The position numbers and the translations under genes were made by a program. A DNA stretch of 64,000 bases, taken from Escherichia coli (GTDB taxonomy: Bacteria; Pseudomonadota; Gammaproteobacteria; Enterobacterales; Enterobacteriaceae). The stretch is from NCBI RefSeq assembly GCF_036507355.1, contig NZ_AP027878.1. One strand, given 5' to 3'. This document shows positions 45,183 through 47,039 of this stretch, piece by piece. The notes beneath the pieces are model-generated. The model was not told the DNA's origin, searched no databases, and was given only the letters and a program-made list of their open reading frames with translations. Every line of letters starts with the position of its first letter. Position 1 is the first letter of the stretch.

Positions 45183-45871
45183 GCTGCACCATCACCTTTC
45201 ACTTTCATCAATGTCAGGTTTCCGCAAAATACGGCACCAGTGTCGATATACTGCTGATTCCAGAATGTCTTCGGGCTTTTCACCGGAGTGTGACCAAAGA
45301 TAAAACGATCTGCGCCCGAAATTTCGCCACCAATATCATCCATCGAATCACTGATACGCTCGCGCGCCCAGACAACGTTGAAAAGCGGCACCTCCTTACC
45401 GAATTGGTATTCATTATCCGGATAGTCGGCATGGGCTATAACGATAGTTTCTTGCCCGGTGTTCAGCTCAATGATATAGGGCAGACGCTTTACCAGCTCC
45501 ACCAGCGCCCAGGCTAATATTTCCTGATCAGTGTCCAGCATGAAGAACCATTGTCCGCCATTCATTAGCCAGTTATTCACGTTGCCATCTGGACTTAACG
45601 CATCAATCATCAGCCGCTCATGGTTCCCCATCACTGCCCTGAACCAGGGCATCTGCAATAGTTCCAGACATTCGACATTTTCAGTACCGCGATCGATAAG
45701 GTCGCCGACCGATATCAGTAAATCCTGCGCCGGGTCAAAATCCACACGATGGAGTTCGGACATCAGTCTGGTGTAGCAACCATGCAGATCACCAACAACC
45801 CAGACATTCCTGTATTTGGTACCGTCGATACGGTGATAAATTGTGGGTGCCATCATGTATTCTTCAGCCAT
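45179..45871 (-). CDS. ppp: Ser/Thr protein phosphatase, lambda-PPase family
   Basis: 230 aa; GDLHG...GDLIDRG...GNHE metallophosphatase motifs. Confidence 0.8.
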
Positions 45872-46479
45872 TCTTTAAGAGTCATCTGCGGAATACCTCC
45901 CATTTTCCCGCATGAAACAACGTCAATCTGTTCACGCGCAGACTGGAATAACAAAGGCAGGTGACTTAGATTTTTTGGCGTGCCGCCGGAGTGAACGCGT
46001 AGTTCTTGCGTAGCGTCAACGCCCACCAGAGCTACATGTTTGAATCCGATATGGAAAGCCAGGTTCAGAGCACCATATGCACTATTGCCGCTGGCAATTT
46101 CATTCTCATCTTCGCAAAGGCCGAAATGTGCGGACCAGCGCCACGCCCACCACTCGGGAGAATTCGTATTTTTTGGCTCCATGCCGCGTTCAGCCACACG
46201 ACGGAAGCACAGAACGCCATCTCTGACTTCACGTTCTTTAACATCGGGTAGTGCCATGCAATAACAAACACCACGGCGACGGCGGCCACGACCAACGCGC
46301 CGCATATTGTCTGGGGATGGATCAAGGGTGAAAAAATAAGAAGCGCGGTTAAGCCAGTCGATGGCCCCATTGACCGCTATAATCGGCACTCCGCGCGGCG
46401 CAACAAAGTTTGCGGCGCTTGGGCCACTGCCGACGATAATAACGCGATCACTGCCTCTAAATTTATTCTTGGGAAACAT
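45853..46479 (-). CDS. GSGPS-motif protein, paralogue 2 (MptE-like/DUF115-like)
   Basis: 208 aa; [11 protein letters not shown]...IIAVNGA near N-terminus; paralogous to the upstream ORF. Confidence 0.45.
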
Positions 46480-47039
46480 TGAATTGCACTGCTCCTACTT
46501 GCATTCAAAATATGTAAATCTGCGTGTTTTTTGCGGGTATCCAGGAACTGCTGTTGCCATTTTGAAATAGACACCTGCGTTGGATTCCGTAGTGCTTGAG
46601 GGTGCGCGCCATGCCAATGAAGGCCGTTTTGCAGAGAACAGTCATAGCCGACTAATACCACTACTTCAGCCCCTGATTCAGCAGCCAGACTGATAGCCTG
46701 CGCGCCGCTATTTACCCCTTCCGCCGGTCCACAATATCGCCTGTACTCCAACGAAAATGATTTCGCCGCCGCCAGGTTGGCTGTCACTTTGCGGAATCTC
46801 CCTCCCGGTATGGTGGATCCGTATTGCTTCCACCATGACAAATCACCGGCGTATAAGGCATAAATGTCATCGAACATCTGCCAGGAATTGTTAACCGCGA
46901 TGATTGAACAGCCAGTTTTTTCTATAGCAGCACAGTCCTCACGAGTGAGTGACGGACCGCTACCGACACAAAAAACAGTCCTAGTCGCCCTGGGTGGTAT
47001 GTTCATTCTCAGCTGCAAATTCAGCCTCCAGGCGAGCAT
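46377..47039 (-). CDS. GSGPS-motif protein, paralogue 1 (MptE-like/DUF115-like)
   Basis: 220-aa ORF; TVFCVGSGPSL...IIAVNNS; 3' end overlaps next gene by about 100 bp. Confidence 0.45.
   Translation of the reverse strand: MLAWRLNLQLRMNIPPRATRTVFCVGSGPSLTREDCAAIEKTGCSIIAVNNSWQMFDDIYALYAGDLSWWKQYGSTIPGGRFRKVTANLAAAKSFSLEYRRYCGPAEGVNSGAQAISLAAESGAEVVVLVGYDCSLQNGLHWHGAHPQALRNPTQVSISKWQQQFLDTRKKHADLHILNASRSSAIQCFPRINLEAVIALLSSAVAQAPQTLLRRAECRL

Follow-up and report, generated by a model that had tools for sequence, protein, structure and literature searches.

A long same-strand overlap between two old paralogues, pmgO and pmgP, in phage P1

Same-strand gene overlaps in prokaryotes are mostly very short, with about 45% of them being 4 nt and about 15% being 1 nt long (PMC3887535). 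Under a neutral model, the length of an overlap is set by the first out-of-frame stop in the neighboring gene, and anything longer than 59 nt tends to be discarded as a probable misannotation (PMC3887535). One published classification divides overlaps by origin into those caused by loss of the stop of gene 1 and those caused by an upstream start in gene 2 (PMC2268670). Another described system is the programmed −1 frameshift gene pair of phages (e.g., tail chaperone G/GT; also dnaX).

Here, we analyze a 103-nt overlap between the P1 genes pmgO and pmgP. It exceeds the 59-nt limit, and both of its frames are validated here by homology. Its length belongs to the class 1 mod 3, like that of the common 4-nt ATGA overlap; among long overlaps, this class is the rarer one (PMC3887535). 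Both known routes to long unidirectional overlaps are seen at this locus: stop loss, which elongates gene 1 at its 3′ end, and an upstream start, which elongates gene 2 at its 5′ end. As in programmed −1 pairs, pmgP is read in the −1 frame relative to the gene before it, and P1 carries a heptamer of the right form. Unlike in those pairs, the heptamer is not conserved, a stimulatory structure was not found, and pmgP has its own start and encodes a complete domain. The overlap is a validated exception, not a new kind.

The pmgO/pmgP locus

The window, by which we mean the whole analyzed stretch of 64,000 nt, is phage P1 (99.7% identity to AF234172, megablast). The closest described system is this very locus. 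The records of P1 (AF234172; pmgO/pmgP, formerly orf84a/orf84b) and P7 (AF503408; hdmB/hdmC) have the same coordinates, the same overlap, and the same Oppp operon. The overlap is already part of the P1 reference annotation and is, in that sense, already known. The labels given to the genes in these records, “putative morphogenetic function” or “head morphogenesis,” are based solely on their position, and PmgO and PmgP go undiscussed in the main text of the paper on the P1 virion proteome. Literature searches on pmgO/pmgP, phage DUF115/MptE-like genes, and phage sialyltransferase-like genes returned gene lists, tables of essentiality, and deletion strains but no study of function; the paralogy, the fold, the O-P-Q module, and the origin of the overlap were not found described in the literature searched.

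All features given below lie on the minus strand of the window. The operon order is pmgN-pmgO-pmgP-ppp-pmgQ, behind the C1 operator Oppp; pmgO and pmgP sit in one C1-repressed operon of P1. The pmgO coding sequence (46377..47039) specifies 220 amino acids as annotated, and the product of its open reading frame begins MLAWRLNLQLRMNIPPRATRTVFCVGSGPS (ORF list and sequence). PmgO has an MptE/Maf/GT42-like fold with a conserved core of approximately residues 20 to 200, inside which lies its GSGPS loop (46950-46964). Its ancient paralogue pmgP (45853..46479) encodes 208 amino acids. The pmgP ATG (46477-46479) is the sole canonical start codon upstream of the GSGPS motif, a nucleotide-binding-type loop whose codons (residues 17 to 21; 46417..46431) fall within the overlap. 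In P1, ppp (45179..45871), which encodes a lambda NinI-type Ser/Thr phosphatase, stands between pmgP and pmgQ (44481..45182; PHROG 1962 “glycosyltransferase”), the third member of a conserved O-P-Q module.

The original prediction, made from the sequence alone, was that the two reading frames overlap by about 100 bp, or some 33 codons, in different frames. This is borne out: the overlap (46377..46479) is 103 nt and comprises the last 33 sense codons and the TAG of pmgO plus one extra base, with pmgP in the −1 (+2) frame relative to pmgO. The pmgP ATG is made of the last base of a pmgO CAA codon and the first two bases of the following TGT codon, while the pmgO TAG (46377-46379) is made of the last two bases of ATA (Ile34) and the G of GCG (Ala35) of pmgP. 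An AGGAG element (46492..46496), putatively of Shine-Dalgarno (SD) type, is found 12 nt 5′ of the pmgP ATG within Ser-Arg-Ser codons of pmgO. The overlap is 103 nt long in 82 of the 82 P1-type loci examined.

Conserved coding sequence occupies both frames of the shared stretch, as expected for a genuine long same-strand overlapping pair. Within 46377-46479, both C-F-x-x-x-L-E-x-x-I of PmgO and I-I-V-x-S-G-P-S-A of PmgP are conserved. That an alternative frame should stay open for 33 codons is not improbable as such; what goes beyond chance is that the same stretch codes for conserved and structured portions of both proteins. The long overlap is real, not an annotation artefact.

Other gene boundaries in the operon also overlap. 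The small open reading frame pmgN, upstream of pmgO, spans 46981..47169 (46981-47136 as annotated in P1) and has an annotated overlap of 59 nt with pmgO (46981-47039). The first ~17 annotated residues of PmgO are poorly conserved and predicted to be disordered (pLDDT <50), and start sites differ among relatives; Met12 (ATG 47004-47006) is an alternative pmgO start, from which the overlap with pmgN would drop from 59 to 26 nt. On the other side, the annotated ppp start (ATG at 45871) creates a 19-nt overlap with pmgP (45853-45871). The sixth ppp codon is also ATG (45854-45856) and, together with the TGA that ends pmgP (45853-45855), makes up a classic ATGA overlap. This Met6 is probably the true ppp start, and we presume that it fits the N-terminus of lambda-type phosphatases better than the annotated one.

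Paralogy and fold of PmgO and PmgP

The two genes had been proposed to be paralogous on the basis of matching N-terminal motifs, and both points stand. V-G-S-G-P-S occurs near both N-termini, at residues 25 to 30 of PmgO and 16 to 21 of PmgP. Pairwise protein alignment, the check suggested with the original prediction, proved nearly uninformative (BLASTP, E = 0.003, N-terminal 36 residues only). It took a comparison of profiles to show the relationship. Using family alignments of 35 PmgO-type and 32 PmgP-type sequences, hhalign matched the two over almost their full length (98.9% probability, E = 2.9e-17, 163 columns), with an insertion of ~35 residues in PmgP relative to PmgO. The proteins belong to different PHROG families (4603 for PmgO, 2111 for PmgP) that show weak cross-matches. 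By these sequence comparisons, PmgO and PmgP are true but old paralogues. The duplication is old, since a Xanthomonas jumbo phage and Pseudomonas prophages already have O and P as two genes in this order; the tandem duplication that had been suggested is not supported as a recent event.

Membership of described families was assessed in several ways. Against PF01973 (MptE-like, DUF115), PmgO scored 23.4 bits and PmgP 20.9 bits, both below the gathering score of 34.6. At E < 0.01, the same model matched 33 of the 35 PmgO-family members (best 3e-8) and 28 of the 32 PmgP-family members (best 9e-7), and the three-dimensional fold is shared with MptE or Maf. The architecture of the Maf flagellin glycosyltransferases, a multi-domain protein of ~600 amino acids with domains flanking a central MAF_flag10, is not that of PmgO or PmgP. 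NCBIfam returned nothing for any of the four proteins searched. The PmgO profile matched the Cst-II sialyltransferase over the N-terminal ~120 positions only (E = 0.003-0.01), and the PmgP profile had no match among PDB sequences.

The GSGPS loop found in both proteins may correspond to the N-terminal nucleotide-binding loop, G-N/S-G-P-S, of GT42 sialyltransferases (Campylobacter Cst-I/Cst-II). In the family alignments, H141 and H143 of PmgO are invariant, and the only near-invariant histidine of PmgP is H173. IIV-x-SGPSA is the most conserved motif of the PmgP family, with V16 and G19 invariant in the 32 sequences. The fold is common to CMP-ulosonic-acid transferases and also to pyrophosphokinases. 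Maf enzymes are reported in a preprint to transfer Kdo (10.1101/2020.06.03.131540).

Length, constraint, and origin of the overlap

We compared P1 with ten other phages or prophages that have adjacent O and P genes, and with 82 P1-type loci. Orthologues in which the first gene ends before the second starts, named in the original prediction as contrary evidence, were absent: in 10 of 10 adjacent pairs the genes overlap, by 4 to 94 nt. The overlap is 4 nt (ATGA) in the Xanthomonas jumbo phage XacN1, 11 nt in the Pseudomonas prophage L091, 13 nt in L093, 37 nt in the E. coli phage EP_H11, 40 nt in both L089 and L090, 49 nt in Pantoea L088, 70 nt in both the Cronobacter phage JK004 and Salmonella L087, and 94 nt in the Citrobacter phage phiNP. 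The 103 nt of P1 are thus at the long end of the range seen in relatives. Distant relatives keep the order O-P-(ppp)-Q with varying overlap lengths, and in L092 the genes are not adjacent at all (order P, methyltransferase, Q, O). Since the lengths differ among relatives and the genes can be separated, the overlap is dispensable for function.

A core of ~40 nt (46440..46479) is common to all enterobacterial relatives. It encodes the last strand and the start of the last helix of PmgO, together with the disordered N-terminus of PmgP. All enterobacterial versions have the pmgP ATG straddling the X-Cys codons of the conserved (Q/K/T)-C-F motif of PmgO, and a GGAG-like element is present 10-12 nt 5′ of it within the PmgO Ser-Arg codons, in the relatives too. 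The spacing of 12 nt from AGGAG to ATG in P1 is longer than the usual optimum, and the SD-like element is inseparable from the coding constraint on the conserved Ser-Arg of PmgO. Where the overlap is short, the PmgP N-terminus is also short (MVGSRC-IIV, MRA-VIV), which points to an upstream shift of the pmgP start by ~9 codons as the first step.

The other end of the overlap is set by the codons of pmgP, from which the pmgO stop is formed: GTG-ATC gives TGA in L089, GTA-ATC gives TAA in L090, GTA-GCC gives TAG in L088, CTG-AAT and ATG-AAC give TGA in JK004 and L087, and ATA-GCG gives TAG in P1. Val13 of pmgP is GTT in P1 versus GTG or GTA in the relatives whose pmgO stop is formed at Val13-Ile14. 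P1 pmgO therefore lacks a stop at the position used in L089 and L090 (46440-46442, the ancestral stop position) and reads on for 63 nt (46377..46439; PmgO residues 200-220 and the TAG), a tail that in the pmgP frame encodes β1, the GSGPS loop, and on to Ile34. No indels separate P1 from JK004, L087, L088, or phiNP in either frame, and the stretch 46377-46560 showed none relative to close relatives. Thus, P1 pmgO is longer because point substitutions moved its stop, and the proposal that a frameshift had lengthened the first gene does not hold.

We redrew the synonymous codons of pmgP from Val13 onward according to the codon usage of the window itself, as a neutral expectation for overlap length. 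The median overlap was 43 nt, and 19.6% of trials (P = 0.196) reached or exceeded 103 nt. The length in P1 therefore needs no selective explanation.

We propose, with a probability of about 80%, that the overlap between these two paralogues with the MptE/Maf/Cst (CMP-sugar transferase-like) fold has a two-part history, in which a core created by a start shift was extended by stop loss in the P1 lineage. In an enterobacterial ancestor, the pmgP start would have moved upstream to the ATG across the PmgO X-Cys codons, so that the disordered first ~10 residues of PmgP came to be read from codons of the last strand and helix of PmgO, giving a core of ~37-40 nt. In the P1 lineage, GTT at Val13 would then have removed the pmgO stop, and pmgO would have read through the β1-GSGPS codons until the TAG formed by ATA (Ile34) and the next G, an extension of 63 nt. 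The 21 residues added to PmgO would be disordered and free of selection. Translation of pmgP would probably initiate at its own AGGAG inside the pmgO codons while pmgO ribosomes run through, and the result may be co-expression of PmgO and PmgP, which probably work jointly with PmgQ in a module of glycosyltransferase type. The locus would be an example of how a long same-strand overlap can grow, by a start shift and then a stop loss that is silent in the neighbor, with little sign of strong coding conflict.

Divergence by codon position, measured among seven lineages, changes along the overlap. Upstream of the pmgP ATG, the signature is that of pmgO (third position, O3, 0.61; O1, 0.50; O2, 0.34). 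In the 36-nt core it is mixed (O3/P1, 0.46; O2/P3, 0.37; O1/P2, 0.22), with amino acid identity of 0.55 for the pmgO reading and 0.43 for the pmgP reading. In the 63-nt tail it is purely that of pmgP (P3, 0.61; P1, 0.22; P2, 0.19), with identities of 0.79 for the pmgP reading and 0.31 for the pmgO reading. Polymorphism among the 82 P1-type loci follows the same pattern, since all four variable sites in the tail are silent in pmgP and non-synonymous in pmgO; outside the overlap, silent changes outnumber replacements in both genes, as is usual (40 to 11 and 41 to 16). Both frames thus vary in the core, where pmgO is somewhat better conserved, and constraint in the tail is on pmgP only.

Structure predictions agree with this division. 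AlphaFold2 (AF2) modeled PmgP confidently (pLDDT 94), with ~55-60 for residues 1-10 and >95 for residues 12-34. PmgO was modeled confidently from ~21 to 200 except for a loop at 141-150, with a helix at 194-206 and a pLDDT <50 for residues 207-220. The fold ends at approximately PmgO residue 200 in the paralogue alignment, PHROG 4603 ends at residue 202, and PmgO of EP_H11 and XacN1 ends at the column of P1 residue ~198. The PmgO tail is therefore predicted to be disordered, and most of the overlap appears to be an innocuous side effect of losing a stop codon.

Alternatively, the 21-residue tail might be a functional extension selected in the P1 lineage, such as a contact with PmgP or a regulatory peptide. 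The tail is fixed in 82 of 82 P1-type loci, and extensions of 11-19 residues occur in JK004, L087, and phiNP as well. Against this, the extensions differ in length and sequence, and the L-S-S that they have in common is dictated by the pmgP I-I-V-G-S-G codons. The near invariance of the tail (all but 4 sites in 82 sequences) would follow from pmgP constraint alone. With no pmgO-frame constraint, predicted disorder, and a length within neutral expectation, selection on the tail is unlikely.

A programmed −1 ribosomal frameshift that produces a PmgO-PmgP fusion besides the separate proteins appears very improbable. The −1 frame of pmgP would suit it, as would the two heptamers of the form X XXY YYZ that the P1 overlap contains in frame, T TTC CCA and A AAT TTA (46458..46464), and a natural in-frame O-P fusion found elsewhere. 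These heptamers do not behave as conserved slippery sites, however: A AAT TTA is confined to the P1 lineage (0 of 7 relatives checked), T TTC CCN follows from Cys-Phe-Pro codons, and four of the eight sequences checked lack any heptamer. A search for a stimulatory RNA structure gave a z of −0.32 for a 161-nt fold, with 76 of 200 shuffles folding at least as well. Furthermore, pmgP has its own ATG and SD-like element, and the frame relation differs in L091, where the overlap is 11 nt.

It has also to be considered that the overlap may be overstated by annotation, with pmgP truly starting at the GTG of codon 31 (46387-46389) and overlapping pmgO by only 13 nt. A 178-aa PmgP that starts MPIIAVNG and lacks GSGPS is indeed the deposited form for 373 database members (P0003), and the annotators of phiNP likewise picked a downstream pmgP start. 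We reject this start, which can hardly be the true one: the 30 residues lost would include IIV-x-SGPSA, the most conserved motif of the family, which has a match in both the paralogue and Cst-II-type enzymes, and these residues form β1 and the nucleotide-binding-type loop (pLDDT >95) and have a clean pmgP-frame codon signature. Finally, although P1 pmgO is the longest of its family and some E. coli elements have a frameshifted 174-aa variant, a mutational frameshift or a sequencing error in the present sequence is excluded for practical purposes by the identical arrangement in 82 of 82 independent P1-type loci and by the gap-free alignments described above, in which the stop position is the sole difference. 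A start shift followed by stop loss thus remains our preferred reading.

Annotation and the O-P-Q module

Long overlaps lead public annotations to drop or truncate one partner. At overlaps of 70-94 nt, pmgO is uncalled in JK004 (L083 1932-2570), in phiNP (L084 1992-2594), and in L087 (1929-2570). The pmgP gene is uncalled in EP_H11 (L085 2501-3136) and truncated in phiNP (L084 2501-3121), and both genes are called in L088 to L090, which have overlaps of 40-49 nt. Widely used gene callers allow overlaps on one strand only up to about 60 nt; such a cap would explain the loss of a partner where the overlap is long.

Phages from P1 to jumbo phages have the O-P-Q trio in common. In a pair of prophage-like contigs, one from Pseudomonas (L091 1-5609) and one marine gammaproteobacterial (L093 1-5594), it directly follows the prohead protease and major capsid genes (ClpP-type and HK97-type, respectively) and precedes head-completion genes; in other phages it follows the lysis cassette. 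Genes inserted into the module include a Sulfotransfer_2 gene between P and Q in L093 and a SAM methyltransferase gene in L092. The capsid adjacency and these inserted genes hint at a glycan-decorating module that possibly acts on virions. The “putative morphogenetic” pmgO, pmgP, and pmgQ thus constitute a conserved glycosyltransferase-like three-gene module of very different phages, sometimes located beside a capsid gene.

One phage contig, which also has a portal gene of the P22 type, encodes a 376-aa in-frame fusion of PmgO-like and PmgP-like parts, followed by a PmgQ homologue (P0171, L094 4001-5131); it comes from a single SRA metagenome assembly, in which an assembly error is possible. 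This natural fusion, from one assembly, and the conserved O-P-Q order suggest that the proteins act together. When an artificial PmgO+PmgP fusion was modeled with AF2 (10 paired rows plus one natural fusion), the domains were confident and their mutual packing was not (pTM 0.58).

In-frame deletions and CRISPRi knock-downs of pmgO and pmgP cause no plaque defect (PMC9024508; PMC10695390). In the CRISPRi screen, pmgN scored as essential, and it is dispensable by in-frame deletion, a discrepancy remarked on by the authors of the screen; the downstream operon genes are all non-essential (PMC10695390).

A bolder reading, to which we give little weight, is that PmgO and PmgP are the two paralogous subunits of an obligate hetero-complex, each resembling a transferase of CMP-ulosonic acid (probably CMP-Kdo), which with PmgQ would glycosylate a phage or host target during lytic growth (e.g., the capsid or the LPS core, the P1 receptor). 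The deep overlap, possibly with low-level −1 slippage at A AAT TTA, would then set the subunit ratio or yield a fused enzyme similar to the natural O-P fusion.

Two variations within the module are worth recording. The ppp gene lies between pmgP and pmgQ in P1, L087, and L088, and is absent there in JK004, phiNP, L089, and L090, where pmgQ directly follows pmgP; judging from this distribution, ppp looks like a lineage-specific insertion into the O-P-Q module. The 174-aa pmgO variant mentioned above (P0122; 48 member sequences, from E. coli P1-like elements) ends ...TRKKTRRFTYFECK* owing to a frameshift upstream of the overlap, which cuts PmgO before its last conserved segment. From its sequence, pmgO appears to be inactivated in some natural P1-like elements.
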